Notes: generated from the letters alone by a model not told the origin. A DNA stretch of 64,000 bases from Candidatus Limnocylindrales bacterium (GCA_046707905.1 JBKKDM010000008.1:3367-67366), one strand, 5' to 3'; shown: positions 4,925-30,843, counted from the first letter of the stretch. Translations and numbers: made by a program.

Positions 4925-5485
4925 GTGTTGCAGACAGATCTGGTCCAGCGGGCGCGTAGCGGAGACCGCGAGGCCTTCGCCGTGCTGGCGGCCGGGTCTG
5001 TCGATCGGTTGTATGCCATCGCTCGGCTCATCCTCCGCGACGCCGAACTCGCGGAAGATGCAGCCCAGGAAACGCTCGTCCGGGCCTGGCGCGATCTTCC
5101 ATCGCTGCGCGATGTGGACCGCTTCGATGCCTGGATCTACCGCCTTGCCGTCCGCGCGTGCGCGGACATCGGACGCCAGCGTCGACGCTGGCGCACCGAG
5201 CTCACCGTCGTACCGAACGAGCCCACCGAGCACGACCGAGCGGCGGAGCTTGCCGATCGCGACGAGCTCGAACGCGGGCTCAAACGCCTGAATGAGGCGC
5301 AGCGAACGATCCTCGTCCTCACCTACTACCTCGGCTTCGCGCCGGGCGACGTGGCTGAGGCCCTCGACATTCCCGTCGGGACGGCGAAGTCCCGCCTCCA
5401 CTACGCAATCGAAGCCCTGCGGGCGGCCCTCGAGGCCGATGCCCGAGCGCTGCCCACGGCGGCGCGGGGAGGACGGACGGCATGA
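4925..5485 (+). CDS. ECF (group IV sigma-70) sigma factor, paralog 1 of 6
   Basis: Region 2: DAAQETLVRAWRDLPSLRDVDRFDAWIYRL. Region 4: GTAKSRLHYAIEALR. GTG at 4925 follows GAGGAG. The track ORF begins at 4790. Confidence 0.85.
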   Translation: MLQTDLVQRARSGDREAFAVLAAGSVDRLYAIARLILRDAELAEDAAQETLVRAWRDLPSLRDVDRFDAWIYRLAVRACADIGRQRRRWRTELTVVPNEPTEHDRAAELADRDELERGLKRLNEAQRTILVLTYYLGFAPGDVAEALDIPVGTAKSRLHYAIEALRAALEADARALPTAARGGRTA

Positions 5486-6279
5486 TCACACTACGAAATC
5501 TCGAGCGCCGATTGGCGGAGCACCTCCATGGGGAGGCACCGAGCCGGGCGCCTGACTGGATCCTGCGGTCCGCGCTAACGACCATCGAAACGACCCGACA
5601 GCGGCGCGGCCCATTCGCGCCGCGGAGGAACCTCGACATGCCCACCTTTGCAAAGCTCGGCCTCGCTGCCGCGGCGGTGATCGCCGTCGGCGTGCTGGCC
5701 CTCTGGCGGTTCGCGCCGCCCGGCCCGGCCGCTCCCTCGAACCCGGCTGCCTCGCCATCTGCGTCACCGACGGCGCCGCGGACCCTCCCGCCGGCGCCGA
5801 CCGCGGCCACCTATGTGCCGCCTGCCCTGACCGAGACATTCACGTCGGACCGCCACGGCCTATCGCTCTCGGTCCCGGCCGGCTGGACGATGACGGCGGC
5901 CACGGAAGCGTGGACGGACGCCGATCCGCCGCAGTTCGGTGAAGCGTCGGGCGACCTCATCTACGACCCGGAGAAGGAAGATCACCTCTTCCTGGCGTTG
6001 GCTTCACAGCCGCTCGGCGGAACATCGTTCGACGCGTGGTTGACGGACTTCCTGGCCACCGAGGGCTGCGCGCGAACCGAGCGTGCGGTCATCGAAGGTG
6101 CGGACCGCGCCATCGGCACGGCCTGTGACATCGAGCTCTTCTCGAGCGGTGGCCGCGGCTACGCCATCGCCCTGTATGCGTCAGGAGACGACGCCGACCT
6201 TCGATCGTTCGACACGGCGGCTTTTCTCGAGGACATCCTCGCGACCGTGCAGCTGCAGCCCGTGACCGCGGTCGACTAG
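5482..6279 (+). CDS. single-pass membrane partner of ECF sigma 1 (putative anti-sigma/sensor)
   Basis: ATGA overlap with the sigma stop. Short cytoplasmic N-terminus with the T-x-Q-R-R motif, one TM helix (FAKLGLAAAAVIAVGVLAL), then a Pro/Ala linker and an ectodomain (FTSDRHGLSLSVPAGW). Confidence 0.6.
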   Translation: MITLRNLERRLAEHLHGEAPSRAPDWILRSALTTIETTRQRRGPFAPRRNLDMPTFAKLGLAAAAVIAVGVLALWRFAPPGPAAPSNPAASPSASPTAPRTLPPAPTAATYVPPALTETFTSDRHGLSLSVPAGWTMTAATEAWTDADPPQFGEASGDLIYDPEKEDHLFLALASQPLGGTSFDAWLTDFLATEGCARTERAVIEGADRAIGTACDIELFSSGGRGYAIALYASGDDADLRSFDTAAFLEDILATVQLQPVTAVD

Positions 6280-6327
6280 CGCGGAGGTCGCGCCCGATCC
6301 GTACCTGTACCCACGACCTGGAACCAC

Positions 6328-6360
6328 GCCGGCCTCGGCTTCGTCCGAGGCCGGCGTTGT
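6328..6360 (+). terminator. intrinsic-terminator-like hairpin
   Basis: Perfect 11-bp stem GCCGGCCTCGG / CCGAGGCCGGC with loop CTTCGT, followed by GTTGT. Lies after the stop of partner 1. Confidence 0.55.
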
Positions 6361-6422
6361 AGCCGGGTGAAAGGCGCTCGGGAGTACGATCAGCCGAAAC
6401 CGTGGCGACGGAGACCTGATCG

Positions 6423-7592
6423 ATGACCGACACGCTAACGAAGGGCGCCGCCAACCAGTCGGGCGCCCACCTCAACAAGGACGCCTACAAGGAGGCCAAG
6501 GACTTCCTGCCTCTGAACGGCGTCGACCACGTCGAGTTCTGGGTCGGGAACGCAAAGCAGGCGGCCCACTATTACCGGGCCCTCTGGGGCTTCACGCCCG
6601 TTGCCTATGCCGGCCTCGAGACGGGCGTCCGCGACCGGATCAGCTATGTCCTGCGCCAGAACGACATCACCCTCGTCGTGACCGGGGCGCTCCAGCCCGA
6701 CACGGAGATCGCCGAGCACGTCGCCAAGCACGGCGACGGCGTCAAGGACATCGCCTTCACGGTCGACGACGCGACCTCGTCATGGCGCGAGACCACGACC
6801 CGGGGCGCGACGTCGGCCATCGAGCCTGTCGAGCTGGACGGCGGCGAGGACGGCATCCTCCGCCGGAGTGCGGTCGGGACGTACGGCGAGGTCCGCCACT
6901 CGTTCATCGATCGTCGCGACTACCAGGGCGTTTTCGCGCCGGGCTACCGGAAGATCAAGAAGCCCGCGGCGGCGGCCCAGGGCCTGAGCCTCCTCGAGAT
7001 CGACCACTGCGTCGGTAACGTCGACCTCGGTGACATGAACCGCTTCGTGGACTACTACCGCGACGTCTTCGGCTTCGCCCAGCTCATCCACTACGACGAC
7101 AAGGTCATCCACACCGACTACTCGGCCCTGATGTCCAAGGTCATGACCAACGGCAACGGGCGGATCAAGTTCCCGATCAACGAGCCGGCCTCCGGCAAGA
7201 AGAAGAGTCAGATCCAGGAGTTCCTCGACTACTACCTCGACGCCGGCACGCAGCACGTCGCCCTCCGGACCGAGGACATCGTCTCCACCGTCCGCCAGCT
7301 GCGCGAGAACGGCATCGAGTTCCTGGGGATGCCGCACGCGTACTACGAGACCCTCGCCGACCGGGTCGGCGACGTGGGCGTGCCGATGGCGACGCTCGAG
7401 GAGCTGGGGATCGAGGCCGACCGGGACGAGGAGGGCTACCTCCTCCAGATCTTCACCCGCCCGATCCAGGACCGCCCGACGTTCTTCTTCGAGATCATCG
7501 AGCGCCACGGCTCGCGCGGGTTCGGCGTCGGCAACTTCAAGGCCCTGTTCGAGGCGATCGAGATTGAACAGGCCCGGCGCGGGAACCTCTAG
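6423..7592 (+). CDS. hppD: 4-hydroxyphenylpyruvate dioxygenase
   Basis: VDHVEFWVGNAKQAAHYY, GTQHVALRTEDI, LLQIFTRPIQDRPTFFFEIIERHGSRGFGVGNFKALFEAIE. Confidence 0.95.
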   Translation: MTDTLTKGAANQSGAHLNKDAYKEAKDFLPLNGVDHVEFWVGNAKQAAHYYRALWGFTPVAYAGLETGVRDRISYVLRQNDITLVVTGALQPDTEIAEHVAKHGDGVKDIAFTVDDATSSWRETTTRGATSAIEPVELDGGEDGILRRSAVGTYGEVRHSFIDRRDYQGVFAPGYRKIKKPAAAAQGLSLLEIDHCVGNVDLGDMNRFVDYYRDVFGFAQLIHYDDKVIHTDYSALMSKVMTNGNGRIKFPINEPASGKKKSQIQEFLDYYLDAGTQHVALRTEDIVSTVRQLRENGIEFLGMPHAYYETLADRVGDVGVPMATLEELGIEADRDEEGYLLQIFTRPIQDRPTFFFEIIERHGSRGFGVGNFKALFEAIEIEQARRGNL

Positions 7593-7627
7593 CTACGGGT
7601 AGCCACCGTCCAACCCCGCACCGAATC

Positions 7628-7661
7628 GGAACCGCCGCCGGCTGGTGCCGACGGCGGTTCC
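7628..7661. terminator. hairpin between convergent genes
   Basis: GGAACCGCCG ... CGGCGGTTCC, a 10-bp stem between the hppD stop and the stop of partner 2. Confidence 0.4.
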
Positions 7662-7695
7662 GTACAGCCGGTGCCGGTTCTTCAGGGGCCTTCGA

Positions 7696-8616
7696 TCACG
7701 GCGCAAACTCGAGCGAGTCGACGATGGCGATGCCGGCCCGAATGTCAGCCGCCGGCGTCTCGTCGTAACCCAGCCGGACGACGATCACCCGAGTCCCGTC
7801 GACGTCCAGGATGTACACGAACCAATAGTTGTTATTTCCCTGGGCGTACAGGCCTGCGTCTTTGCCCGAGAAGGGGAAGTAGCGGGCGTCGCCGCTTTCG
7901 TCCTGGTCGCACGTTCGGAGGTCCTCCCCGGTTGGGAGGAGGATCTCCACGAGGTAGCCTTGGTACCCATCGAGCGCGACCGGGCTCGGCGCCGACCTGG
8001 CGGGGTAAGCTGGATTCGCCGCGAGCGCGTTCGCGAGGTCGATCGCCGCAGGTCCGACCACGATATCGCCCGGCTGGTCGAAGGTACCGGAGCCGTTCCG
8101 ATCCCACTGGCAGGGGTCGCTGAACAGTCCGTCGGCGCGGATGATCGCGATGGCGATCCCGTTGGGACCCTCGGTCCCGACAGGACCGGACACCGCCCAC
8201 GGCGGGACCCCGTTCCAACCGGCAGGGATCTCGGCGAAGACGGAAAGCGTCGGATGGTCGGTGAGTGGCTGGAAGCGGTATCGCCCCGCTGCAAGCCCGC
8301 CCTCCGGAAGATCGCGGACAGTGACGCTCGGCTCCGGCGTCGGTGTCGAAGTCGACGCGGGAGATGCTTGCCCACCCGCGTCGGGCAGCCTCGGCAAGAG
8401 GCTGTAGCCGACCACGGCGACGATGAGGGCCGCGGCCAGAGCGGCAAGAAGCCTGATTGGGGTCACGTTGGTCCTCCATGGGAAGGGCCAAGGGCGCCGC
8501 TGGCGCTGGACGCCGATCCGGACAGCGACGACATCCACGACGCGATCGGAAATCGCATTTGGACCGTCAGCCATCCAGGTCGAGAGGACGCGGTCGATGT
8601 CGGACTGATGGTTCAT
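7696..8616 (-). CDS. single-pass membrane partner of ECF sigma 2
   Basis: ATGA overlap with the sigma stop. N-terminus WMADGPNAISDRVVDVVAVRIGVQRQRRPWPFPWR, then a TM helix. Ectodomain has DPCQW and ILDVDGTRVIVV and ends IVDSLEFAP. Confidence 0.65.
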   Translation of the reverse strand: MNHQSDIDRVLSTWMADGPNAISDRVVDVVAVRIGVQRQRRPWPFPWRTNVTPIRLLAALAAALIVAVVGYSLLPRLPDAGGQASPASTSTPTPEPSVTVRDLPEGGLAAGRYRFQPLTDHPTLSVFAEIPAGWNGVPPWAVSGPVGTEGPNGIAIAIIRADGLFSDPCQWDRNGSGTFDQPGDIVVGPAAIDLANALAANPAYPARSAPSPVALDGYQGYLVEILLPTGEDLRTCDQDESGDARYFPFSGKDAGLYAQGNNNYWFVYILDVDGTRVIVVRLGYDETPAADIRAGIAIVDSLEFAP

Positions 8617-9185
8617 CGCGAGATACCTCCGACGACCGAGACGCGTGCGTCAGCTTCAAGTGCGGCACGCATGGCGTTGTGGGCGTGATGGAGGCGGGAA
8701 CGGACCGTTCCCGCGGGGAGTCCGAGGACCTCGGCGATCTCGCTCGGCTCGTAGCCAACGTAATGGCGGAGCACGAGGATGGCGCGTTGGTCGGGGGTCA
8801 GCCGGCGAAAGCCGCGGTCGAGCTGGTCTCGATCCGCGATGCCCAACAGCTCGTCCCGAGCGGCGGGGCCTTCCACCGGGAGCACGTACAGGTTGTTGAT
8901 CCGCTTGCGCTCCCGGCCGGCCTGGGCAATGCAGACATGTGTGAGCAGCCGGTGGACCCAGGCGTCGAACCGGTCCGGATCGCGGAGGCTCGGCAGGTCA
9001 CGCCAGGCGATCACCAGTGCGTCCTGCAGGGCATCCTCGGCCCGGTCGACATCCCGAAGGATCCGATGCGCGATCGCAAGGAGGCGGCCGCCGCGGAGCT
9101 TGACCAGGTCGACGAACGCCGCCTGATCGCCTCGCTGTGCCGCCTCGACGAGATCGCGATCCACCGTCTCTCCCGTGGCTGGCAC
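8613..9185 (-). CDS. ECF sigma factor, paralog 2
   Basis: DALQDALVIAWRDLPSLRDPDRFDAWVHRL; GTVRSRLHHAHNAMR. A later GTG (VDRDLVEAA, at 9164) after GGGAGAG is an alternative start. Confidence 0.85.
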   Translation of the reverse strand: MPATGETVDRDLVEAAQRGDQAAFVDLVKLRGGRLLAIAHRILRDVDRAEDALQDALVIAWRDLPSLRDPDRFDAWVHRLLTHVCIAQAGRERKRINNLYVLPVEGPAARDELLGIADRDQLDRGFRRLTPDQRAILVLRHYVGYEPSEIAEVLGLPAGTVRSRLHHAHNAMRAALEADARVSVVGGISR

Positions 9186-9207
9186 CCGTCGGGGGTGCCG
9201 TCCACCT

Positions 9208-9238
9208 GTATCGGTGGATCGTGCGCCGCGAGCGTTGG
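9208..9238 (-). promoter_or_regulatory. ECF-type promoter candidate for pair 2 (CCAAC-N20-CGATAC)
   Basis: Same spacing and position as the other five. Preceded by a T-run on the coding strand. Confidence 0.45.
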
Positions 9239-9267
9239 AAAAACATCGCCGCCGGGTGACGAAATAT

Positions 9268-9290
9268 ATTGACTGCTGACGTCAGTCAAT
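9268..9290. promoter_or_regulatory. inverted repeat, candidate TetR operator
   Basis: ATTGACTG-N7-CAGTCAAT with an inner TGACGTCA palindrome, in a locally AT-rich patch 14 nt upstream of the tetR GTG. Confidence 0.5.
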
Positions 9291-9303
9291 CGATACTGCA
9301 CGG

Positions 9304-9930: not shown

Positions 9931-9932
9931 CC

Positions 9933-10319: not shown

Positions 10320-10347
10320 GCCCAATGAAGACAGGAGGGAAACGAGG

Positions 10348-10907: not shown

Positions 10908-11951
10908 GTGCGAGTCGCCCACGTTCGCGAGCGGCATGGCGCGGCCGGTGCGCCGTGGCGTCTCGCCGCGGCCCGGACGTGGCAGGACGGGCCGTGGCTC
11001 GATCTCGAGGTGGTCCGACGGCGGCTGGTGGCCGCGGACCCGCAACGGACCCACAACGCGGTCCTGTTTCGCCAGCCGATCACCACGCTCGACGACCACC
11101 TTGCCCGTGGCCTTCGGATCGACGCGCTCGGCGAGCTCGTCGACGGGTTCAACGTCGCCGGCGGCCCTCGCGACGCCGACGACGATGCCGTCCTCGGGGA
11201 GCGGGATCTCGCCTTCGGTCCGCCCGTTCTTCGGCCGCCGTCGTTTCGCGACTTCTACGCTTTCGAGCAGCATGTCGCCACGATGTGGTCGCGGCGCCAG
11301 AACGAGATCCCGGAGGCCTGGTACCGCCTGCCGATCTTCTACTTCTCGAACGTCTCCGAGGTCCGCGGGCCCAACGACGCCGTGTGGGCGCCGCGGGACT
11401 CGAAGGAGCTCGACTTCGAGCTCGAGGTCGGCGCCATCGTGGATACGCCGGCATTCGACCTGCCGCCGGAGCGAGCCGCCGAGGCGATCGGTGGCTATCT
11501 CCTCCTCAACGACTGGTCGGCGCGGGACCTCCAGCGCGACGAGTCGACCGTCCGCCTGGGCCCGGCTAAGGGCAAGGACTTCGCGCTGAGCATCGGACCC
11601 TGGATCGTGACCCCGGATGAGCTCGCAGACCGCATCGGGGACGACGCGAAGGCGCCCGACCTCGAGCTGACCGCCACGGTCGCGGGAGCGGACGGAACGG
11701 TGGCCGAGGTCTCGCGGGGCTCGTGGTCGGTCGCGCGCTACTCGTTCGGGGAGATGCTCGCGCGCGCCTCGGCTGACGTCCACGTCCGCCCGGGCGACCT
11801 CCTCGGCAGCGGGACGCTCGGGACCGGCTGCCTGTTGGAGGTCAAGGACGCGACGCTCGGGCGGTGGCTGGAGCCGGGCGACCTCGTGACCCTCGCCGGC
11901 GACCGGCTCGGCCGGCTGGATACCCCGATCGTGGTGCGGCCCGGCCGGTAG
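10908..11951 (+). CDS. fumarylacetoacetate hydrolase (FAH) family protein
   Basis: PIFYFSNVSEVRGPND, ELDFELEVGAIV, LLNDWSARDLQ, GPAKGKDFALSIGPWIVT, GDLLGSGT. Confidence 0.8.
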   Translation: MRVAHVRERHGAAGAPWRLAAARTWQDGPWLDLEVVRRRLVAADPQRTHNAVLFRQPITTLDDHLARGLRIDALGELVDGFNVAGGPRDADDDAVLGERDLAFGPPVLRPPSFRDFYAFEQHVATMWSRRQNEIPEAWYRLPIFYFSNVSEVRGPNDAVWAPRDSKELDFELEVGAIVDTPAFDLPPERAAEAIGGYLLLNDWSARDLQRDESTVRLGPAKGKDFALSIGPWIVTPDELADRIGDDAKAPDLELTATVAGADGTVAEVSRGSWSVARYSFGEMLARASADVHVRPGDLLGSGTLGTGCLLEVKDATLGRWLEPGDLVTLAGDRLGRLDTPIVVRPGR

Positions 11952-14111: not shown

Positions 14112-14125
14112 GTGGGCGCCGTCAC

Positions 14126-14156
14126 TGAACGTTTCGAGGCAACCGCCCCGTCATAG
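14126..14156 (+). promoter_or_regulatory. ECF-type promoter candidate for pair 3 (TGAAC-N20-TCATAG)
   Basis: Same motif and spacing. The hexamer ends 4 nt before the GTG at 14160. Confidence 0.5.
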
Positions 14157-14198: not shown

Positions 14199-14750
14199 GT
14201 GGAACGAGACCTGGTCGAGCGGGCCCGTACAGGGGATCGCGAGGCATTCGCCGTCCTAGTGCACCAGGTAAGCGACTCGCTTTACGCGGTGGCCTACCGG
14301 ATCCTGCGCGACACGGGCCTCGCCGAGGACGCGCTGCAGAACGCCCTCGTCCTTGCCTGGCGCCGGCTGCCCAGGCTCCGGGATCCGGACCGTTTCGAGG
14401 CCTGGATCCATCGGATCCTCGTCCACGCCTGCTACGACGAGTCCCAGCGGACCCGGTCGTGGCGAACCAACGTGACCGTCCTGCCGATCGAAGGCCCGGG
14501 ACGCAGCGACGAGTCCGCGGCGATCGCCGATCGCGACGAGCTCGAGCGCGCGTACCGCCAGCTCACCGTCGAGCAGCGCGCGGTCTTCGTCCTGCACCAC
14601 TACCTCGGGCTGCCGCTCGTGGAGGTCGCCGAGCTGCTCGGCATCCCCGCCGGCACGGCTCGATCGCGACTCCACTACGCCATCGCCGGGCTCCGGCGGG
14701 CCCTCACGGCCAGGCCCGAGCCCCTCGCCCGGGAAGGACGACTCGCATGA
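14199..14750 (+). CDS. ECF sigma factor, paralog 3
   Basis: GTG at 14199 after GGAGGGG gives VERDLVERARTGDREAF, aligned with the paralog N-termini. The track start at 14160 is a possible leaderless alternative. Confidence 0.85.
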   Translation: MERDLVERARTGDREAFAVLVHQVSDSLYAVAYRILRDTGLAEDALQNALVLAWRRLPRLRDPDRFEAWIHRILVHACYDESQRTRSWRTNVTVLPIEGPGRSDESAAIADRDELERAYRQLTVEQRAVFVLHHYLGLPLVEVAELLGIPAGTARSRLHYAIAGLRRALTARPEPLAREGRLA

Positions 14751-15637
14751 CCGACGATCGAACGCTCGAACGCGCCGCGCGATCGTGGCTGGATGAGGGC
14801 CCGACCCGGGCCCCCGACCGACCCGTCGAGGACGCCCTCGCCCGGATCCAGACGACATCCCAGGAACGCGGGCTCGCACTCCGATGGAGGACTCCACCAA
14901 TGCTGTCTCGACTCGCGGTCGCCGCCGCCGTCACGGTGCTCACCGTCGGCGGGATCTATGCGGCCGGCGGCTTTACCAATCACGCCCTCCCGAGCGCGGG
15001 TGCCTCACCCACGGCGACCGCGCTCGCGAGTGTCCCGCGGCCGTGCAACTCGCAGCTGATCCCGAACTTGCTGTTGACCTCGGGCTGCACCTATGCGTCT
15101 AGCGAGTTCGTGCATCCCTTCACGGTCCGGGGAGATGCTCGTTGGCTGTCGGGCGGCGAGTTTGCCTCCGGTGCCGAGTTCACTGGCTCCGGCGCGACCG
15201 TGGAATACGCCATCGTGCAGCTCATCGTCCTCACGGCGGTCCAGGCTCCGATCTCCTGCGATGGGGGCAGCGCTCCGCCGCCACCGACCGTCGTGCCGAC
15301 GTCCGCCGTCGAGTACCTCGCCTGGCTCGACACGATCGCGGGCGTTGCCCTGCCTCGACAATCGACGACCTTCGGGGGGCTGCCGGCCACACGTGTCGAC
15401 ATCACGTCGCGGGAGACCGAGTGTCCACCAGATTCCTACCCAGGCTGGGTTGGCCAGTCTGGCGTCGGCGCAAACGGGGAGATGCTCGAAGCGAGTTGCT
15501 TCGGTTCGTGCGCGGTGTATGTCGTGGAGGACGGCGACCTGCTGCTTGTCGCGACGGTCAGCGTCCAAGGCCACGAAGGCATCCAATTGAGCCCGCCGGT
15601 CGCCGCGTTCCTCGACGGTCTCCGCTTCGCTCCCTGA
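14747..15637 (+). CDS. single-pass membrane partner of ECF sigma 3
   Basis: ATGA overlap. WLDEGPTRAPDRPVEDALARIQTTSQERGLALRWR plus one TM helix. Cys-rich ectodomain ending LDGLRFAP. The track ORF start at 14459 overlaps the sigma gene. Confidence 0.65.
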   Translation: MTDDRTLERAARSWLDEGPTRAPDRPVEDALARIQTTSQERGLALRWRTPPMLSRLAVAAAVTVLTVGGIYAAGGFTNHALPSAGASPTATALASVPRPCNSQLIPNLLLTSGCTYASSEFVHPFTVRGDARWLSGGEFASGAEFTGSGATVEYAIVQLIVLTAVQAPISCDGGSAPPPPTVVPTSAVEYLAWLDTIAGVALPRQSTTFGGLPATRVDITSRETECPPDSYPGWVGQSGVGANGEMLEASCFGSCAVYVVEDGDLLLVATVSVQGHEGIQLSPPVAAFLDGLRFAP

Positions 15638-16940: not shown

Positions 16941-17267
16941 CCTTCGCGGCGTACGCTCGCCGGGATGGACTCTCGAGCCGATGCGCCCGCCGTTGATGAC
17001 GCGCCTGCCGCATCCGAGACGAGCGATATCCGCAGTTCCGGTCGGGACGTGGACCTGGCCGGCCGCGACCTCCTCGAGCTTGCGCGTCTCGCTGCTGCTG
17101 CTGGCGACGCGGGCGCCGCACAGGCGTTGGTAACAGGCGCGCTGGGCTCCACCGAACCCGCCGTGGCAGGCGAGGCTGCCACGCTTTCGCTGCGGGCCGA
17201 TGGAACCCCCGAGGGCGCCCGACCGCGACTGCGGCGCGGACGGCGCGGCGAGGCAGAGCCCCGCTAG

Positions 17268-19463: not shown

Positions 19464-19490
19464 GAGGGCCGCCGCGACCGGATCGGCCGA

Positions 19491-19820
19491 TCATCGCTTT
19501 GGCCTTGGTATGCCGGTGGACTGCTCACTCTGCGGGTGGCGGAACCTCTCCTTCTCTTCCTCTTCCCTTCTCTTGGAGCCTTCGCTGAGCTTGTCCCCGA
19601 CCGACGTATCGACCCCCACGTTCCCACCGCCCGGACCGCCGCTCCCGAGGGCAGGCCCGGGGCTGTCGAGCTTGGTGCCGCGCTCGAGGTCGTTCGACGG
19701 CGAAGACGGACCCTCCTTGCCGGTGAGCGAGTCGCGTTCCCGGCGGCCCGCCTCGTCGGCGGCAGGCGTCTCGGACTTGCCACTCGGGGGTGTTTCCGGA
19801 ACCTTGTCGCTGTTGGTCAC
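19491..19820 (-). CDS. ~109-aa predicted disordered protein (operon gene C)
   Basis: The GTG at 19820 overlaps the TGA of the ATPase gene (GTGA). Sequence VTNSDKVPETPPSGKSETPAADEAGRRERD ... SKRREEEEKERF. The track ORF (19491-19913) extends into the ATPase gene. Confidence 0.45.
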   Translation of the reverse strand: MTNSDKVPETPPSGKSETPAADEAGRRERDSLTGKEGPSSPSNDLERGTKLDSPGPALGSGGPGGGNVGVDTSVGDKLSEGSKRREEEEKERFRHPQSEQSTGIPRPKR

Positions 19821-22800: not shown

Positions 22801-22918
22801 CGCCGGGACTGGCCTCCGTCCTCGCTCCGTATGCCGGCTCGAGCTCCAGGCCCGACCGCTGGAGGTAGTCGACCTTCGCCGTCGTGACGGACTCCGTTGG
22901 CGGCGGTCGAGTCAGCAC
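19817..22918 (-). CDS. 1033-aa P-loop NTPase of the HerA/FtsK (DUF87-like) superfamily with unassigned N- and C-terminal regions (operon gene B)
   Basis: Walker A HVFVAGLTGSGKTNT (21731-21757). Walker B LLVIEEAHRLL (21029-21052). VIIADQVP, LKIAHRV. About 380 aa N-terminal and 280 aa Cys-rich C-terminal (CPETC..C, C..C..C, CLC) that I cannot assign. Confidence 0.85.
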   Translation of the reverse strand: MLTRPPPTESVTTAKVDYLQRSGLELEPAYGARTEASPGGRRLLRVRGVGRSEKYRQRQGPVRSERWRPATVELITGLYGYRIPIAYLVTGSEDGVRIHLGTWSARAASDAVQSRRVGVIASVLRGLHPVVDLDEAEVVPLPWPYAGLALGVPSPTGVDESDGAAPIDRVIRSMTGGSWAVLVLAYPAAEPAIARIRDSVLNEMRAVQSAAKSELAPSPLMEQYVELLKSSLSAAGEGMATGAWRTGVYLLGTEDSYPRLASAWRSVMSGEGSLPEPVRVFDRPEAGALADAWALPDDEGAPGPGFYRRPFEYQTLLSTASLGAYVHLPELESPGFNVNLVPRFDVVASSNGADGTNIALGTVLQHRQATAGTYGITLKSLTRHVFVAGLTGSGKTNTIMSLLSEAAAHDIPFMVIEPAKAEYRALVDHPTIGPLVRVFTAGKATVAPFVLNPFEVPPGTTVSEHLNLLRAAFTAAFGMWTPLPQILERCLHDVYTDRGWDLRTNANARLSDAGDTAGAFPTISDLIAKVGEVIPGLGYDDKVTGDLRAALVTRLESLRQGAKGAMLDVARSLPAEELFEHPTVVELEALGDEGDKAFFAGLLLIRLAEYRRAKGQSSELAHLLVIEEAHRLLANVPMQASEESANPRGEAVQTFSNLLSEIRAYGQGVIIADQVPVRLAPDVMKNTNLKIAHRVVSADDREALAGAMAMDEPQSKALASLEVGEAVVFSGGDDAPLLVRIPLVKDGLAKVPPTDGRVREHMAGWRSSAGFDALFFPQPFCPETCLTPAACEAARRLAEDEYVQRTVTRTVLSSIDEGGAVDRLWEDLTAVVRARRPVRVPDTDLLRAFAGHASDWIATRRGVQGVWSYADTSEYRNRLREMFLGKLVGPTAPVDRIAAFQQSARRLDMREFDPYVACHLVCTEVPRVCLYRSAVADLVVAGRYRASWREADANDARSEGNTRAETWEVCQDAAFELVEFPDPDMAESVKATVEATARKVCLCFEQQMLADDDRKVPRTSRRILARVMAEAGL

Positions 22919-24174
22919 GTGGCGACCAGCGTCACGACACTGCCCTCCGGCACAAGGGTGTCAGCCGCGGGGTCCGTCCGGACCGCAAGCGGCGGGGTGC
23001 CCAGGCAGAAGCCCTCGGTGATGATCGCCACGCCAAGGCCGGCTGCGACAATGTTCGCCTCGGCGTCCGCCTGCGCCATCCCGGCCACGGCGGGGACCGG
23101 CACATCCGCGGCCGGAGCCTGGGTCTCGGCGACCTCCGCGGGTCCGCTCGAGATGAAGAGCATCACCTTGGCGTCCAGGTCGAGCATGGAACCCGCTCCC
23201 GGGTCCGTTCTGATGACCGCACCCTCGGGTACCGTTTCGCTGGACTCCGTCGTTGTGCGCGACGATAGTCCCGCATCCGCGAGGGCCGATACGGCTGCCG
23301 CCTCGTCGAGGCCGGCGAGCCCGGGAACCGGGACGAGCACTGGCGCCGGCGCTGGAGGCTCGGTCGGCGGTGGAGGAGGCGGGGCGAACGTGGCTGCGCC
23401 CTGACCACCCGCGCCGGACGACACGACGACCAAGACCGAGCTCGCGCGATCTACCTCGACCGCTGCCTGGGGAGTCGTCCGGATCACCAGGCCTTGGGCG
23501 ACGGAGTCGCTGGACTCGGTCGTGGAATCGGGGATCAGGCCAGCTTGGCCGAGCTTGGAGAACGCCGCCATCTCGTTCAGCCCGACGACGTCCGGGACCA
23601 CCACGCGGCCCGCAAGGAGTGCCGGAAGCCCACCGGACATGACCGCGGCGGCCCCGCCTGCGATGACAGCGAGGAACACCGCAAGGACGGCCCATTTCAG
23701 CCAGCGCGGGAAGCCGATGACCTCCGAGGCCGTCGTCAGGTTCTTGATCTTCGAGGCATGGAGCGTCCCTCGGGACCAGCGACCAACGACCTCGACCTCG
23801 TCGCCATCCGTGACGCGACCTGCCCGACGCGCGCGCATCTCGACCGCGACGGGCGGCAGGCGGTTGCCGGCGCCGTCGTAGCGATCGACGCGCAGGAGGA
23901 GGGTCGTGACACCGTTCTCGACGGGCCGGAGCTCAACGCTTCTTGCGACGCCCCGGACCCGCCGCTTCGACGGCTCCTCGGCCGCCGCGCCGGGATCGGG
24001 GGACCGCTGCGGTCCATTGCCGCCACCGGACCTCGGCCTGCGAGCGTCAACCGGGGCGGGCTGACTCGGCGTAGCGCCAGCGGCCCATTCCTCGCGGAGA
24101 TCGAGGGGGTCACCACGCGCCCCGACCGGTTCCGCTGGCGCCTCGCCAGCTGATCCGCTTCGCCCGTCAGCCAT
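22912..24174 (-). CDS. membrane protein with cytoplasmic beta-rich module, one TM helix and three extracytoplasmic PASTA repeats; no kinase or PBP domain (operon gene A)
   Basis: ATG at 24174 (MADGRSGSAG). TM helix WLKWAVLAVFLAVIAGGAAAVM. Three ~65-aa repeats of the form VP(D/A)V(V/A)G..........AGL....T.ESS..V..G.VIRT.P. A 7-nt overlap (GTGCTGA) with gene B. The track start at 24351 runs through the hmgA remnant. Confidence 0.75.
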   Translation of the reverse strand: MADGRSGSAGEAPAEPVGARGDPLDLREEWAAGATPSQPAPVDARRPRSGGGNGPQRSPDPGAAAEEPSKRRVRGVARSVELRPVENGVTTLLLRVDRYDGAGNRLPPVAVEMRARRAGRVTDGDEVEVVGRWSRGTLHASKIKNLTTASEVIGFPRWLKWAVLAVFLAVIAGGAAAVMSGGLPALLAGRVVVPDVVGLNEMAAFSKLGQAGLIPDSTTESSDSVAQGLVIRTTPQAAVEVDRASSVLVVVSSGAGGQGAATFAPPPPPPTEPPAPAPVLVPVPGLAGLDEAAAVSALADAGLSSRTTTESSETVPEGAVIRTDPGAGSMLDLDAKVMLFISSGPAEVAETQAPAADVPVPAVAGMAQADAEANIVAAGLGVAIITEGFCLGTPPLAVRTDPAADTLVPEGSVVTLVATC

Positions 24175-24228
24175 GCTGGTCCACCGTCGCTCCCGTCCGA
24201 GGACGCGGCGCCAGGTGGGCCGTCGCGT

Positions 24229-24396
24229 GATCGCCGTGATCCACCATAGCCACCCAGTGCCCCGCTGGCTACGCCGATCCGGCAGGCGATGGAGCTGCAC
24301 GACGACCGCTGCCCGTACTCGTGGCTGCCGCCTGAGGACGAGCATGGGCACGCCTCCGAGCTCGCGGAGCGAGGCCCGGAGGCGTTTCCGGACTGA
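24229..24396 (+). pseudogene. displaced 3'-terminal fragment of a homogentisate dioxygenase gene (direct repeat copy 2)
   Basis: 24286-24396 reads in frame AMELHDDRCPYSWLPPEDEHGHASELAERGPEAFPD*. The hmgA end reads AMELDDDRYPYSWIPPEDAEGHASELAERGPEAFPD*. Weaker frameshifted similarity (tcgccgtgat) extends back to about 24229. Confidence 0.75.
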
Positions 24397-24417
24397 CGAC
24401 GCATTCCCGGGATCAGG

Positions 24418-25338
24418 TCACTCGAAGCGAACCGAGTCGATGATCGAGTTGATCTCGTCATCAAAGGTCGCGATCGGGTCGCCGTAGAGGACCTCGATGA
24501 CCAGGCGAGTCCCGCGGACGTCCACCACGACCAGGCGTTGGGCCGCGCCCGGGAGGGTGACGCCACCCACATCGCCCGTGCTCCAAACCTGAATCAGGGC
24601 GTCGCCTGTGCAGCCGGCTCCGTCCGACGGCACGGAGTTGGTGAAGTCGAATTCCTTGCCTGGCAGGCCATCGACGAGTACGTCCGTGACGGGTCCGACG
24701 GTGAACTTCGGGAGATTCGACAGCGCGGTGATGAAATCGTCGACCGTCGGGCCGAGATCGGGGACGACGATCGTGTTTCGACAGGGGTCAGCGAAGACGG
24801 CGAGTGGCACTTCGAAGTTGACGAACGCCCCGTTGGAGCCTTCCTCCGTCCGTGAGTCGATCACCATGCTGATGACGCGTGACTTGACTCCCGTCCACGC
24901 CTTCCACCCGGCGGGGACATCGAATGTCAGATCGGGCAGCTGGAAGGGCGCGCCGGCTCGATAGGTACCAGCCAGGGCGGCCCCCTCCGGCGGGAAGGTG
25001 GGAGCTGCGGCGGTGGCGCTGGCCGGCGGCAGCGTGGCTGGAGACGTGGTTGGGGAGGTGATCGGCGACGAGGTCGGGGCGGTCGTCGGGCCGCCGACGT
25101 CGCCGCCGCGGAACAGGTTCAGACCCGCCACGCCAACGATCGCGACGATCGCGATCGCGGCGGCGAGCCGTAGGGGGGTGCTCAAGGGGGAAGTCCTCCA
25201 CGGCACCGTTGCGCGGCGCCGCTGATTGGTCGTATGAATCTCGGCGAGGGCAGCCTCGAGCACGCGATCGTTCAGCTCCGTCGGTCCAGCAGTCAGCCAG
25301 CTGGATGTGATCCGATCAAAGTCACGATTCGTGGTCAT
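24418..25338 (-). CDS. single-pass membrane partner of ECF sigma 4
   Basis: ATGA overlap. WLTAGPTELNDRVLEAALAEIHTTNQRRRATVPWR plus one TM helix. Ectodomain with FADPCR and VVDVRGTRLVIEV, ending IDSVRFE. Confidence 0.65.
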   Translation of the reverse strand: MTTNRDFDRITSSWLTAGPTELNDRVLEAALAEIHTTNQRRRATVPWRTSPLSTPLRLAAAIAIVAIVGVAGLNLFRGGDVGGPTTAPTSSPITSPTTSPATLPPASATAAAPTFPPEGAALAGTYRAGAPFQLPDLTFDVPAGWKAWTGVKSRVISMVIDSRTEEGSNGAFVNFEVPLAVFADPCRNTIVVPDLGPTVDDFITALSNLPKFTVGPVTDVLVDGLPGKEFDFTNSVPSDGAGCTGDALIQVWSTGDVGGVTLPGAAQRLVVVDVRGTRLVIEVLYGDPIATFDDEINSIIDSVRFE

Positions 25339-25889
25339 GCCGAGTGCTCCCGCGAGGTATCGGTTGACGAGCGCGAGTCCGCCTCGAGGGCGGCCCGCAG
25401 CGTGTTGGTGGCGTAGTGGAGCCGCGACTTGACGGTTCCGAGCGGCACGCCGAGCTCGGCGGCCACCTCGTTCAACGTCAGGCCGAGGTAGTGGTGGAAG
25501 ACGAAGACTGCTCGCTGCTCCGGCGGCAATCGTCGGAAGCCGCGATCCAGCTGATCACGCTGGACGACACCCGCGTAGTCGTCGGTGCTCGACGCAAGGT
25601 CCGGGAGGACACGGACGTTGGCCGTCCAGCGACGGCCCCGTTTGGCTTCCCGGTAGCAGGCGTTGACGAGGAGGCGCCGCAGCCAGGCATCGAAGCGATC
25701 GACGTCCCGCAGCGTGGGCAGCTCCCGCCAGGCGAGGACGAGCGTCTGCTGGACGGCGTCTTCCGCGAGCCCGAGATCGCGCAGGATCCGAAACGCGATC
25801 GCGAGGAGTCGGTCACCAGCGGCGCGCGCCAGGCTGGCAAAGGCTTCCTCATCTCCGGCTCTCGCTCGCTCGACGAGGGCAACCTGCAC
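25335..25889 (-). CDS. ECF sigma factor, paralog 4
   Basis: GTG at 25889 after GGGAG gives VQVALVERARAGDEEAF. The promoter-like motif lies inside the longer track ORF (TTG at 25976), which favours the shorter start. Confidence 0.8.
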   Translation of the reverse strand: MQVALVERARAGDEEAFASLARAAGDRLLAIAFRILRDLGLAEDAVQQTLVLAWRELPTLRDVDRFDAWLRRLLVNACYREAKRGRRWTANVRVLPDLASSTDDYAGVVQRDQLDRGFRRLPPEQRAVFVFHHYLGLTLNEVAAELGVPLGTVKSRLHYATNTLRAALEADSRSSTDTSREHSA

Positions 25890-25933
25890 CCTCGACTCCC
25901 TTCCGCGATGCGTCCGACCTGGACGCCTACCGT

Positions 25934-25964
25934 AGATGAGACCGGAGGTGCCCGGGATGGTTCG
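25934..25964 (-). promoter_or_regulatory. ECF-type promoter candidate for pair 4 (CGAAC-N20-TCATCT)
   Basis: Same motif and spacing as the other five. Confidence 0.5.
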
Positions 25965-26010
25965 ATCCTCGGTCAACGCGCGTCAAGGACTTCGACCGTG
26001 ACGCGAGGAA

Positions 26011-27126: not shown

Positions 27127-27159
27127 GCGATGGAACTCCTTCTGGGCGAGGATCTCATC

Positions 27160-27245
27160 CCATACGGGTGTGGCGGCGACACCGAATCGTTGAAGAGTGC
27201 CCAACGGATCGCCTCCGAGGTCGCGTGGCGAGCCTCGGAGGCGTT
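27160..27245 (+). repeat. degenerate copy of the hmgA-3'-end element; core hairpin 27211-27242
   Basis: GCCTCCGAG-gtcgcgtggcgagc-CTCGGAGGC. Upstream cccatacgggtgtgg / gttgaagag resembles hmgA cccgtactcgtgg / gctgaagga. Lies just after the stop of partner 5. Confidence 0.55.
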
Positions 27246-27276
27246 GTGTTCGAACGGCCGCGGGCGGCTCCTCAGG

Positions 27277-28212
27277 TCACGGCTGGATGACGATCGACTC
27301 GATCACCGCGTCGAGCCGCGCGCGGTCGGCAGCCGTCGTGCCGGGAAAGTCCTGCGCGACCACCACGAGCCGCGTCCCGTCGACGTCGAGGATGTTCGCC
27401 TGCCAGCGGTTCGCAGGCCCCTGCAGGTAGATGCCGGTCGGGCCGTGCTCGCGGGTGCTCCACAGCCGCGCCACGCCCTCGTCACAGGCGGGGGCCTCGC
27501 CGTCGGGATCGAAGGGCTCGGTCGGTCCGACCATGTCGACGCGCTGGCCGCTGTAGCCCCCGATCGTCACGTCGACCGGATCGGATACGGCGTACGCCGT
27601 CTGCGCCCCGAGCGCCGCGACGAGGTCGCCGACCGTCGTGCCGGCGTCGGCGTCGCCGTCCGTGCCGCGCCACTGACACGGGTCCTGGTTGAGGCTGGTG
27701 ACGTCGAGGAACTGGATCGCGATGCCGCCAGGTCCCCCAGGCCCAGGCCGCTCGGGAAAGAGCGAGTTGCCGAACCACTCCCACGGCTCGGTCAAGGTGA
27801 AAGTGACTGTCAGCCCCGGGTCCGTGGCCCAGGTTGCCTGGACGGCATAGCCGCCCGGACCGATGAGCCCGTCACTCACCGGCGTGGGGGTCGATGCGGG
27901 TGTCGGGCTGGGCGGAGGTGATGCGGGCGTCGGCGCGGTCGTTGGTGTCGGCGGGACACCGGGGCCGCCCGTGGAGTTGAGGTACATGACGCCGCCGGCC
28001 CCGACGACGGCCACGAGGGCCACGGCCGCAATGCCGGTCGCGCGTGTGAGTGCAGGCATGGTGGGAAACCTCCACGGCACGCGAATGGCGCGCCGCTGTG
28101 GGGTCCGCGCGATGTCGGCGAGGGCAGCGTCAAGCACACGGTCAGGGAGCCGGTCGGCCTCGGATGCCAGGTAGGCATCGAGGATTCGCTCGGCGTCGAT
28201 TGGCGTGTTCAT
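27277..28212 (-). CDS. single-pass membrane partner of ECF sigma 5
   Basis: ATGA overlap. RLPDRVLDAALADIARTPQRRAIRVPWR plus one TM helix. Ectodomain with DPCQW and ILDVDGTRLVVV, ending IESIVIQP. Closest in sequence to partner 2. Confidence 0.65.
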   Translation of the reverse strand: MNTPIDAERILDAYLASEADRLPDRVLDAALADIARTPQRRAIRVPWRFPTMPALTRATGIAAVALVAVVGAGGVMYLNSTGGPGVPPTPTTAPTPASPPPSPTPASTPTPVSDGLIGPGGYAVQATWATDPGLTVTFTLTEPWEWFGNSLFPERPGPGGPGGIAIQFLDVTSLNQDPCQWRGTDGDADAGTTVGDLVAALGAQTAYAVSDPVDVTIGGYSGQRVDMVGPTEPFDPDGEAPACDEGVARLWSTREHGPTGIYLQGPANRWQANILDVDGTRLVVVAQDFPGTTAADRARLDAVIESIVIQP

Positions 28213-28778
28213 GACGACTGTCCTCCCGCTACGGCCGTCGGCCGTGCGTCTGCTTCGAGCAGGGCCCGCATCGCGCGGTGGGCATAGTGGAGCCTCGAGC
28301 GGGCCGTCCCGGCGGGGACGTCAAGCACCTCCCCGATCTCGTTCAGGCCCAGCCCGAGGTAGTGATGGAGCACGAGGATTGCCCGCTGCTCGGGCGGCAG
28401 CCGCCGAAAGCCTCGGTCGACCTGGTCGCGATCAGCGAGCGCGGCGAGCTCATCCGGTCCCGCCGGCCCGGCGACCGGGAGGGTCCGAATGGACGTGATC
28501 CAGGCGCGCCGCTTGCGCGCCTCGGCATAGCAGGTGCGGACGAGCATCCGGTGGAGCCAGACGTCGAACCGCTCCGGATCGCGGAGGCGGGGCAGCTCGC
28601 GCCAGGCGATCACCAGCGCCTGCTGCACCGCGTCCTCGGCGAGGCCGACGTCACGGAGGATGCGTCGCGCGACGCCGAAGAGCACGTCCCCACGCGAGCG
28701 CGCCAGGATGGCGAATGCCTCCTGGTCGCCACGCCGGGCCTGCTCGACGAGGTCGCGATCCACTCGCTCCGCCCTCAA
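28209..28778 (-). CDS. ECF sigma factor, paralog 5
   Basis: TTG start. VDRDLVEQARRGDQEAF, DAVQQALVIAWRELPRLRDPERFDVWLHRM, GTARSRLHYAHRAMR. Confidence 0.85.
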   Translation of the reverse strand: MRAERVDRDLVEQARRGDQEAFAILARSRGDVLFGVARRILRDVGLAEDAVQQALVIAWRELPRLRDPERFDVWLHRMLVRTCYAEARKRRAWITSIRTLPVAGPAGPDELAALADRDQVDRGFRRLPPEQRAILVLHHYLGLGLNEIGEVLDVPAGTARSRLHYAHRAMRALLEADARPTAVAGGQSS

Positions 28779-28809
28779 AGGTGGCGCGCATCGGGTGCGC
28801 CGTCCGAGC

Positions 28810-28840
28810 CTACAGAGGGGCGAGCGTCACCCAGTGTTCA
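28810..28840 (-). promoter_or_regulatory. ECF-type promoter candidate for pair 5 (TGAAC-N20-CTGTAG)
   Basis: Same motif and spacing. Sits immediately next to the hairpin repeat at 28847-28885. Confidence 0.5.
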
Positions 28841-28846
28841 AAGAGA

Positions 28847-28885
28847 ACGCCTCCGAGCTCGCGGTGCGGGGCTCGGAGGCATTCC
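28847..28885 (+). repeat. short degenerate copy of the hmgA-3'-end hairpin element
   Basis: acGCCTCCGAGCtcgcggtgcgggGCTCGGAGGCattcc. It shares 18 and 10 identical nt with the hmgA copy on either side of the loop. Lies after the stop of partner 6. Confidence 0.55.
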
Positions 28886-28936
28886 AGAATGCGAGGACTA
28901 CTTGGGACCCGTGACCTCGACCCCACGAGGGACGAT

Positions 28937-30295
28937 TTATGGAGCCGGCACCTCGGGCGACGGCGGGGGCCAGACGACGCCTACCTCGTACGACTTCCGG
29001 GCCTCGGGCCAGACGTTCATCGTCTCGAGAAATCCCTCGAGCAGGCGCGACGACCCTCCGTACCGCGCCGTCGCAGGGGCATCTTCGTGCCACCAGACAC
29101 TGACCACGGTCATCCCGCCTGGGGTCGCGACGCCGCCGAAGAAGTACGCTTGCACGCCGTTGTCGAAGGGCACGAGCAGCCCCGGGTGGCAATCGCGGCT
29201 CTCCACGCAGAGGTGCTCCGCCCTCGAGGCGATCCCGGCGCAGGACGTCATGTCCGTCCGCGGGCAGTACTCATCGATCCAGGCCTGGACGGTCTCCCAG
29301 CTCTGCTCGGGCTCGGCGCCGCCCTCGAACGGCACGACCCATGCGCTGACACGAACGTCCCCCTGCGGGGCGCGGAAGGCGTCCGCTGCGCTGGTGAGGA
29401 AGTCGCCACCGTCCCGCCCGAACGTCCAGGCGCGGGTGGCCGGGGTGTTCGACCACCCGGGTGGGACACCGAGCACGAAGCCGTACTCCGCCGAGGTGTA
29501 GGCCGTCCAGTCGCCCGTGTACAGGCGCCCCGCGGACCCTTCGTTGAGGCGGACGGTCGAGAGGAATCCCTGCATGAGGGGTAGCTGGTTCTCACGTCCC
29601 ATCGTGAAGACGTACATCCGAGGGTCCTGGAAGACGAAGGCGATCGTGTCGCACGGGAGCCCGTCCAGGAGCCTGGCCTCGTGCCCGGCGACCGTGATCA
29701 CCTCCATGTCTGCAAGGGTGCAAGCCGGATCCGCGCCCTCGCGGTAGGCGTCGATCCACTCGTCCCCCGACATGCCGGACGGCAGGTCGACGGCGAAGAC
29801 ATGGACCCCGATCTGGTACGACGCTTCGCCATCGATGAACTCGTCCTGGGCCGGCGAGAGCCAGTCCAAGCGGTCCACGTCCATGACCCAGTCCCGGGTT
29901 GCAGGGGTGACTTCCCATTCCGGCGGGTACTTGAGCTCGTAACCGTAGCGGTCAGACGTGAATCGCTTCCAGGAGCCGGTGTCGACGGCAGCCGCCGAGG
30001 GCGATGCCTGAGACACGGCGGTTGGGGCCGTGGTTGGAGCGGCGGTCGGCAGGGGCATCGGCGCTCCGCCGAAGAATGCAAAGGCTCCGACGCCGACGAT
30101 CGCGGCGAGCGCGACCGCGGCAGCGAGCCGCATGTTGAGCGACATGAAGGTTGACCTCCGCGGGATCCGGAGATCCCGCTCTTGGGGAGTCGTCTTGATC
30201 GCGAGGAGGACGGCATCGACGGTGGCCGGGGGCGTGCGGTCGGATCCGCTCTCAAGCCAGCCGTGCATGGCGTTTACGAACGATCGATCGCTCAT
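28937..30295 (-). CDS. single-pass membrane partner of ECF sigma 6 with duplicated ectodomain
   Basis: ATGA overlap. WLESGSDRTPPATVDAVLLAIKTTPQERDLRIPRR plus one TM helix. Two tandem ectodomain copies (WKRFTSDRYGYELKYPPEWEVTPATRDW and WTAYTSAEYGFVLGVPPGWSNTPATRAW). Confidence 0.65.
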   Translation of the reverse strand: MSDRSFVNAMHGWLESGSDRTPPATVDAVLLAIKTTPQERDLRIPRRSTFMSLNMRLAAAVALAAIVGVGAFAFFGGAPMPLPTAAPTTAPTAVSQASPSAAAVDTGSWKRFTSDRYGYELKYPPEWEVTPATRDWVMDVDRLDWLSPAQDEFIDGEASYQIGVHVFAVDLPSGMSGDEWIDAYREGADPACTLADMEVITVAGHEARLLDGLPCDTIAFVFQDPRMYVFTMGRENQLPLMQGFLSTVRLNEGSAGRLYTGDWTAYTSAEYGFVLGVPPGWSNTPATRAWTFGRDGGDFLTSAADAFRAPQGDVRVSAWVVPFEGGAEPEQSWETVQAWIDEYCPRTDMTSCAGIASRAEHLCVESRDCHPGLLVPFDNGVQAYFFGGVATPGGMTVVSVWWHEDAPATARYGGSSRLLEGFLETMNVWPEARKSYEVGVVWPPPSPEVPAP

Positions 30296-30843
30296 GCGAG
30301 CCGCTCCTCGAGGCGTTGAGCCGCCGCGGCCGCCTCGAAGGCGGTTCGCAGCGCGCGGGTTGCGTAATGCAGTCGCGAGCGCGCGGTGCCGTCCGGGATG
30401 CCGAGCGTCTCGGCCACCGCCACGAGGGGCAGGCCCACGTGGTGGTGCAAGACGAACACCGCGCGCTGGTCGAGTGGGAGCCCGCGAAACGCGCGCTCCA
30501 GCTCGTCGCGATCGTCGACCGATTGGAAGTCGTCGGTCGAGTCAGCCCGCCCCAGCGGGAGCACCCGAACCGTCGCTGCCCACTGCCGGTTCCGCGGTGC
30601 GACCGCGTAACAGGCATGAACGAGAATCTTGAATGCCCAGCCGTCGAAGCGGTCGACCTCTCGAAGGTGCGGGAGCTTCCGCCAGATGGTCACGAGGGTG
30701 TTCTGCAGAACATCCTCGGCGAGCCCCGGATCGCGCAGGATCCGCCGGGCGACGCCGAAAAGCGTGTCGCTGACCTGGTGCACCAGATCCGCGAACGCCT
30801 CGTGGTCCCCCGAGCGTGCCCGCTCGACGAGGTCTCGGTCCAT
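30292..30843 (-). CDS. ECF sigma factor, paralog 6
   Basis: MDRDLVERARSGDHEAF, DVLQNTLVTIWRKLPHLREVDRFDGWAFKI, GTARSRLHYATRALR. Confidence 0.85.
   Translation of the reverse strand: MDRDLVERARSGDHEAFADLVHQVSDTLFGVARRILRDPGLAEDVLQNTLVTIWRKLPHLREVDRFDGWAFKILVHACYAVAPRNRQWAATVRVLPLGRADSTDDFQSVDDRDELERAFRGLPLDQRAVFVLHHHVGLPLVAVAETLGIPDGTARSRLHYATRALRTAFEAAAAAQRLEERLA

Follow-up and report, generated by a model that had tools for sequence, protein, structure and literature searches.

Extracytoplasmic function (ECF) sigma factors and their anti-sigma factors are a major bacterial signalling system and a source of orthogonal parts for synthetic biology, and an ECF sigma paired with a partner that crosses the membrane once is a standard bacterial switch. 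Class II anti-sigma domains are made of two helices, of which helix 1 contacts sigma-4 and helix 2 contacts sigma-2; a domain shorter than 50 aa may belong to this class (PMC7406223). For RsgI of Clostridium thermocellum, release involves an RseP cut in the transmembrane (TM) helix, and ClpXP recognizes xAA motifs (PMC12203970). Here we analyze a 64,000-nt stretch of DNA from Candidatus Limnocylindrales bacterium (GCA_046707905.1, JBKKDM010000008.1:3367-67366), hereafter the window, in which six ECF sigma genes (S1 to S6) are each followed by the gene of a one-pass membrane partner (A1 to A6). The window lies on contig C8 of a Limnocylindria (Chloroflexota) metagenome-assembled genome (MAG) of 3.3 Mb (240 contigs, 90% complete, ~70% G+C).

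We estimate a probability of about 70% that each of these modules is an autoregulated ECF sigma/membrane anti-sigma switch with a short, two-helix, class II-like domain. The new element would be a compact, unannotated family of anti-sigma-type domains joined to PsbP-like sensors exchanged among modules and across species.

Six sigma factors and their short-domain partners

A preliminary description of this DNA, made from the sequence alone, had proposed six paralogous ECF sigma/one-pass membrane partner modules joined by ATGA overlaps. All six pairs were found where it had placed them, and the sigma stop and partner ATG overlap as ATGA in 6/6. The sigma genes are S1 (4925..5485, + strand, 186 aa), S2 (8613..9185, −, 190 aa), S3 (14199..14750, +, 183 aa), S4 (25335..25889, −, 184 aa), S5 (28209..28778, −, 189 aa, TTG start) and S6 (30292..30843, −, 183 aa). 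All six products match Sigma70_r2 and Sigma70_r4_2 (Pfam, E 1e-9 to 1e-14); with only sigma-2 and sigma-4 domains, a length of 183-190 aa and TIGR02937 scores above the cut-off, they are ECF (group 4) sigma factors. Pairwise identity among them is 48-64%. The sigma motifs quoted in the preliminary description are present, except that the terminal EADAR is exact in S1, S2 and S5 only.

The partner genes are A1 (5482..6279, +, 265 aa), A2 (7696..8616, −, 306 aa), A3 (14747..15637, +, 296 aa), A4 (24418..25338, −, 306 aa), A5 (27277..28212, −, 311 aa) and A6 (28937..30295, −, 452 aa). A Shine-Dalgarno-like GGAGG, GGGAG or GAAGGA lies 8-13 nt 5′ of each partner ATG, within the end of the sigma gene. 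The ATGA overlap, which had been offered as a mark of the six-pair family, is real but generic, because 22 of the 29 ECF-type sigma open reading frames (ORFs) in the whole MAG overlap in this way with a ≥90-aa ORF downstream, pairs of the zinc anti-sigma (ZAS) type among them.

Each partner has a cytoplasmic part of ~52-56 aa ahead of a single TM helix, then a Pro/Thr/Ala linker and an ectodomain. M1, I34, Q39, R41 and R48 are invariant in the aligned N-termini. Residues 1-56 contain no Cys in any of the six, so the HxxxCxxC motif is absent and the partners are not of the ZAS type, as had been noted. We observed that ZAS-type partners with Cys/His motifs (e.g., HLETCADC) accompany other ECF sigmas of the MAG (C240:9770-10528, C17:3706-4224 and C159:20758-21444), and both partner types therefore coexist in one genome. 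The preliminary description was also right that the cytoplasmic part is too short for a classical anti-sigma domain, which has four helices and ~100 aa; shortness alone, however, is not new, as two-helix class II (CnrY) domains are already known (PMC7406223).

No Pfam family matched the partners (265-452 aa), and NCBIfam gave noise-level matches only. In particular, a class I domain (zf-HC2, RskA or related) was not recognized in Pfam or NCBIfam above noise, and the 52-56 aa form two predicted helices. When we searched 1.84 billion representative proteins (clusters at 50% identity) with a 64-position profile of the N-terminus, 3,737 clusters matched at E ≤0.001 and 1,173 at E ≤1e-10, the matches beginning at residue 1 almost without exception. 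Judged by these profile searches, the partner N-terminus is a large family annotated in no database. In the public gene calls for A4 (P0003, 255 aa) and A1 (P0121, 213 aa), the protein begins only with the TM helix, so that the cytoplasmic domain is lost; automated annotation thus overlooks the family's defining feature. Among 113 family representatives, Pfam-recognized ectodomains are rare (PD40 four times; META, DUF3558 and PsbP_2 once each).

A hidden Markov model (HMM) of the partner N-terminus revealed a seventh copy in the MAG, on contig C206, and more distant partners on C87, C187, C11 and C14 keep the short format and the T-x-Q-R motif. Copies occur in 14/18 genomes of the genus (1-16 each, often clustered). 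We also drew 301 Chloroflexota genomes; Limnocylindria was the only class in which the N-terminal profile gave a match, with 6/15 and 12/15 genomes positive in two families and no match in any further family sampled. Where partner and sigma relatives bear names, these are ‘Candidatus Limnocylindria bacterium’ or ‘Chloroflexota bacterium’. Genomes of 2-3.8 Mb contain the family, and the 1.1-Mb genomes gave one marginal match among 12. This distribution agrees with a published contrast between the CSP1-4 family of the class and the Limnocylindraceae, whose streamlined genomes encode few sigma factors (PMC13212565, 2026).

An ECF sigma directly precedes 40/40 assessable N-terminal modules (14 loci from this and related genomes) and the partner in 8/8 further metagenomic S4 orthologs, which argues against a chance association of sigma and partner.

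The sigmas themselves bear on whether the partner domain is of a described kind. Among curated families, all six match TIGR02983 (the Streptomyces SigE family) best, at 97.5-113.7 bits, and they may belong near the actinobacterial ECF38/39/51/222 clade. A preprint ascribes one shared type of one-pass anti-sigma factor to that clade and to the TIGR02983 clade (bioRxiv 10.1101/2019.12.11.873521). The cytoplasmic part could accordingly be a strongly diverged class I domain that has lost helices, and hence a described though uncharacterized type, a reading that also finds weak NCBIfam matches of the partners to ‘antisigma’ NF052375 and CU044_5270 (E 0.002-0.06) on its side. We consider this explanation possible yet rather unlikely: all six sigma scores lie below the curated 141.55-bit cut-off of TIGR02983, the weak partner matches span the TM helix and low-complexity linker, and the N-terminal profile is confined to Limnocylindria within the Chloroflexota draw. 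A tblastn search for relatives of S4 on plasmids returned only sigmas 30-36% identical, the closest being actinobacterial, in other and unrelated gene contexts (e.g., next to Asp23).

A conserved core and mosaic ectodomains

When 45 sigmas were placed in a maximum-likelihood tree, the six of the window each clustered with orthologs from other species of the genus, and S6 additionally with a sigma from a second genus in the family, so that the six paralogs are of old origin. The S1 ortholog in the Limnocylindria MAG locus L002 is 90% identical. The preliminary description had seen the array as a lineage-specific expansion. A recent or genome-specific expansion does not fit these data, as orthologs of all six occur in other species, clusters of 3-6 modules are found in other genomes of the genus, and the flanks are syntenic.

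Conservation declines along the module. Between orthologs, identity is 78-93% for the sigma, 54-83% for the cytoplasmic domain, 21-50% for the TM helix and 9-43% for the ectodomain (mostly ~20%, the exception being 67% in the closest pair, whose sigmas are 93% identical); neighboring genes in the same genomes are 60-96% identical. A nearest-neighbor test on 45 modules gave the same picture, with the own lineage kept by the sigma in 45/45, the cytoplasmic domain in 45/45 and the ectodomain in 16/45. This strict co-inheritance with the sigma, and the fact that the 50-aa domain changes less than the TM helix and ectodomain do, point to it as the sigma-binding part. Co-inheritance and translational coupling would suit any obligate partner, positive or negative, including one that the sigma needs for activity, as in the FecR-type pro-sigma role, or one that both inhibits and activates. 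Such a role seems improbable to us given that the partners show no similarity to FecR-type proteins (Pfam, NCBIfam) and that described one-pass partners directly 3′ of an ECF sigma are nearly all inhibitors (PMC7826278).

The region upstream of the sigma genes contains conserved promoter-like sites as well. All six sigma genes carry a TGAAC box ~70-76 nt 5′ of the start (CCAAC in S2, CGAAC in S4), followed by an unconserved spacer of ~19 nt and a −10-like box, and a TGAAC box lies 69-78 nt upstream of most sigma genes of the group. The S1 site (4852..4885, +) reads TGAACC, 19 nt, CCGTTTAGGG, lies ~71 nt 5′ of the start and is unique in the genome; its boxes are kept in the ortholog and its spacer differs. 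The other sites are TTCCAACGC ... CCGATAC for S2 (9208..9240, −), TGAACGTTTC ... GTCATAG for S3 (14126..14156, +), ATCGAAC ... CTCATCTACGG for S4 (25930..25966, −), TTGAACAC ... CTCTGTAGG for S5 (28809..28841, −) and TGAACG ... CCTCATCATG for S6 (30887..30919, −). At orthologous loci in other genomes both boxes are kept and the spacer varies, and the −10 box and early leader are lineage-specific: CCGTTTAGGGTGTAGG in the S1 lineage, (G/C)TCATAG in S3, CTCATCTA(C/G)GGTAGGCGTCCA in S4, CTCTGTAGGCTCGGACGGCGCACC in S5 and CCCTCATCATGGGTAGACCG in S6. As a sequence pattern, such a conserved pair of boxes is the usual signature of ECF autoregulation.

We modeled A4 and A1 with AlphaFold2 from alignments of ~50 sequences (mean pLDDT 82 each). 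The A4 model places the two N-terminal helices at residues 4-17 and 24-34 and the TM helix at 54-76; a disordered linker leads to an ectodomain (115-306) that is rich in beta structure and has a pLDDT >90. In A1, the helices span 5-17 and 25-37, the TM helix 55-77 and the ectodomain 116-265. In a Foldseek search of the PDB, the matches of the two ectodomains included PsbP, Jonesia 3lyd, M. tuberculosis Apa, MTC28 and LpqN (all five matched by A4) and DcrB, with probability 1.0, E 1e-5 to 1e-3 and a TM-score of 0.45-0.6 on the target (E 1e-5 for A1 against PsbP). Two independent models, each with an ectodomain at pLDDT >90, thus have the fold of the PsbP/Mog1-like superfamily, an alpha-beta-alpha sandwich. 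A literature search returned no paper joining anti-sigma factors to this fold.

Pairwise scores reproduced the ectodomain grouping recognized earlier, with A2, A4 and A5 in one class (the DPC...DVDGTR type in A2 and A5), A1 and A6 in a second and the divergent A3 apart, and the motifs quoted for the classes are present. The classes hold as sequence groups, but the two that were modeled (2/4/5 and 1/6) share one PsbP/Mog1-like fold, and a ‘(V/Y)P-x-GW’ strand joins them in profile comparison. A3 aligns over its full length with the A2/A4/A5 profile at an hhalign probability of 99%, a score owed largely to the N-terminus; its ectodomain is probably also PsbP/Mog1-like, and the sole BLAST relative of that ectodomain sits on an S4-lineage module. 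A6 contains two tandem ectodomain units, which give two separate BLAST segments, each matching one-unit partners. In other genomes, ectodomains of S4-, S5- and S6-lineage modules reach 45-47% identity with the second unit.

The MAG also encodes stand-alone lipoproteins whose mature parts resemble the anti-sigma ectodomains, at C75:2997-3773 (−, lipobox VVAGC) and C110:10744-11637 (+, lipobox LIVGC), the latter just 3′ of another ECF/partner pair. Together with the fact that the PsbP-like LpqN, MTC28 and DcrB are ordinary envelope proteins, and that no anti-sigma family recognizes the partner, these lipoproteins are compatible with the partner being a co-transcribed envelope protein, a target of the sigma and not an anti-sigma factor, with the N-terminus as a mere signal anchor. 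We judge this highly improbable. A signal anchor would not require a conserved 50-aa cytoplasmic domain, still less one that exceeds the TM helix and ectodomain in conservation, follows the sigma lineage in every module of the nearest-neighbor test, and defines a family of thousands of clusters that nearly all match from residue 1.

The ectodomains are distributed as a mosaic over the sigma lineages. The S4-lineage partner of one genome and the S5-lineage partner of another have ectodomains 62-67% identical, and both are 45-55% identical to those of S6-lineage partners, the second unit of the window A6 among them. We compared the DNA of the window S4 module with seven orthologous loci. Identity is 84-98% over most of the sigma gene, with a dip at the inter-domain linker, 70-75% over the cytoplasmic domain, and falls to an unalignable 34-47% from the partner linker on; just past the stop codon it is back at 78-83% in 3/7 loci. 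The occurrence of one ectodomain type on different sigma lineages and the resumption of DNA identity after the stop codon indicate that the ectodomain segment behaves as a cassette replaced repeatedly between related species. Database counts are consistent with a fixed core and a replaceable sensor, S4 having >120 clusters at ≥82% identity and full-length A4 19 at ≥57%.

Very fast divergence in place, under relaxed or diversifying selection, could in principle produce ectodomains this different, the more so as extracytoplasmic domains in general evolve faster and all ectodomains tested are distant homologs of one fold. It has a low probability in our assessment, as it would have to accommodate 45-67% identity across sigma lineages against ~20% between orthologous modules, and an abrupt drop in DNA identity that is reversed past the stop codon.

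A 32-nt, GC-rich hairpin (GCCTCCGAG...CTCGGAGGC) has four copies in the entire MAG, all inside the window and listed here without strand: after hmgA (16896-16927), just after the A4 stop (24352..24383, the region in which DNA identity to the orthologous loci resumes), after the A5 stop (27211..27242), and after the A6 stop just before the S5 promoter (28849..28880). Other genomes of the genus have comparable hairpins between their modules. The element may serve as a shared terminator and as the 3′ anchor at which cassettes are replaced.

Two further observations concern module turnover. At five loci from the second family of the class (L008, L009, L010, L011 and L012), adjacent paralogous modules have ectodomains 45-58% identical and sigmas of different deep lineages, which suggests exchange or gene conversion among neighboring modules. 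The S2-lineage sigma of genome G005 (L005, ~16510) has a long branch, and no intact overlapping partner ORF was found in a scan; this module may be decaying.

Among the flanking genes, those of the homogentisate pathway are interspersed with the sigma modules (HPPD, FAA hydrolase and HgmA, at 6423-7592, 10908-11951 and 15717-16940) and are syntenic in several genomes of the genus. The S4/A4 ortholog directly adjoins hmgA, in convergent orientation, in two metagenomic loci (L015 and L019). In the window, a block of ~7.5 kb (16940-24418) encoding a PASTA protein, a 1033-aa HerA/FtsK-like ATPase and a 731-aa protein stands between hmgA and A4; its absence from L015 and L019 suggests that it is an insertion.

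Proposed mechanism

In the switch that we propose, the partner would be anchored in the membrane with its N-terminus on the cytoplasmic side. The ~50-aa cytoplasmic part would form two amphipathic helices, as predicted, followed by a basic T-x-Q-R-R...P-W-R stretch adjoining the membrane, and would keep the cognate sigma inactive in the class II (CnrY-type) manner. The TM helix and Pro/Thr/Ala linker would join this part to the PsbP/Mog1-like sensor outside. A signal at the ectodomain would lead to a cut outside the membrane, then a site-2 (M50) cut in the Ala-rich TM helix and Clp degradation, setting the sigma free to transcribe its own operon from a TGAAC-N~19-CTCAT-type promoter, along with a further regulon. 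Lineage-specific −10 boxes and cytoplasmic domains could insulate the six switches from each other. Sigma and cytoplasmic domain would be inherited as one unit, and recombination at conserved flanks would swap the ectodomain segment, wiring a new signal to a given sigma.

Release by regulated intramembrane proteolysis is plausible by analogy, the MAG having three M50 protease loci and the partner TM helices beginning with LAA/AAA motifs.

Several results count against the proposed switch. As M50 proteases are ubiquitous and high-GC genomes often encode Ala-rich TM helices, the M50 loci and the Ala-rich TM helices of the partners support regulated proteolysis only weakly. Residues 1-55 searched alone against Pfam matched no family, anti-sigma or other, and the N-terminal profile showed no similarity to any anti-sigma factor of solved structure, CnrY included, at E up to 10; the hits that did appear (e.g., a death domain and a ribosomal protein) were noise at E 0.2 or worse. 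The N-terminal helices of A4 and A1 are modeled at a pLDDT of 55-73 only. Apparent sigma-partner fusions among public proteins (P0250, P0254, P0167, P0329, P0369 and P0379) proved to be frameshift artefacts with out-of-frame Arg-rich stretches and therefore lend no support. As to a regulon, the strict lineage-specific promoter patterns hit only their own sigma operon in the MAG, and a relaxed search with the S4 and core pattern gave 21 matches compared to 6 in a reversed-sequence control, mostly intragenic and with no coherent targets.

If the switch operates as proposed, a very compact (~50 aa) putative anti-sigma domain is abundant in a class of uncultured soil and sediment Chloroflexota. 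Six natural paralogs with distinct −10 boxes and cytoplasmic domains would form a ready set for studies of how cross-talk is avoided. The rewiring of sensors amounts to a natural experiment, with the same sigma lineage carrying unrelated ectodomains in sister species and the same ectodomain occurring across lineages, and it makes testable whether the ectodomain alone determines the signal. A more speculative extension, which we regard as doubtful, is that the modules form a surface-receptor repertoire. A fixed core of sigma, promoter and two-helix anti-sigma domain would be refitted by recombination at conserved flanks (the core itself on the 5′ side, and the cluster-specific hairpin or neighboring gene on the 3′ side) with PsbP-like cassettes from sources that include other modules and stand-alone lipoproteins, under diversifying selection by fast-changing ligands. 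Sensor turnover within the genus would then point to signals such as competitor or phage proteins, and not to ordinary envelope stress.

Comparison with known systems

E. coli RpoE/RseA and Bacillus SigW/RsiW, both of class I, resemble the modules in their autoregulated operon with the anti-sigma gene directly after the sigma gene and in their one-pass, N-in partner, and a site-2 protease is encoded in the MAG too. Their anti-sigma domains, in contrast, have four helices and ~100 aa, whereas the partners described here have ~52 aa, two predicted helices and no ZAS motif. In CnrY/CnrH of Cupriavidus metallidurans (class II, CnrY/NepR type), a very short two-helix cytoplasmic domain, whose helices wrap around the sigma, stands ahead of a single TM helix. 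The resemblance of the partners to CnrY is one of architecture, drawn from predicted helices and length, with no detectable sequence similarity. CnrY has almost no ectodomain and needs a separate sensor, whereas the partners carry a sensor domain of 150-350 aa themselves. On the sensor side, PsbP, Apa/MTC28/LpqN, Salmonella DcrB and Jonesia 3lyd have the same fold as the modeled ectodomains, but share 9-16% sequence identity with them, and none is fused to an anti-sigma module.

In functional terms, the modules come nearest to the nine SigI/RsgI pairs that C. thermocellum possesses. The two systems differ in that the sigmas described here are two-domain ECF factors, the partners have neither a Pfam RsgI_N match, the N-terminus matching no Pfam family, nor an autoproteolytic periplasmic domain, and the sensors are PsbP-like domains instead of carbohydrate-binding modules. 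They are alike in having multiple paralogous pairs, an N-terminal domain of ~54 aa in RsgI, one TM helix and divergent sensors; the LAA/AAA motifs at which the partner TM helices start also parallel the xAA degrons that ClpXP recognizes in RsgI.

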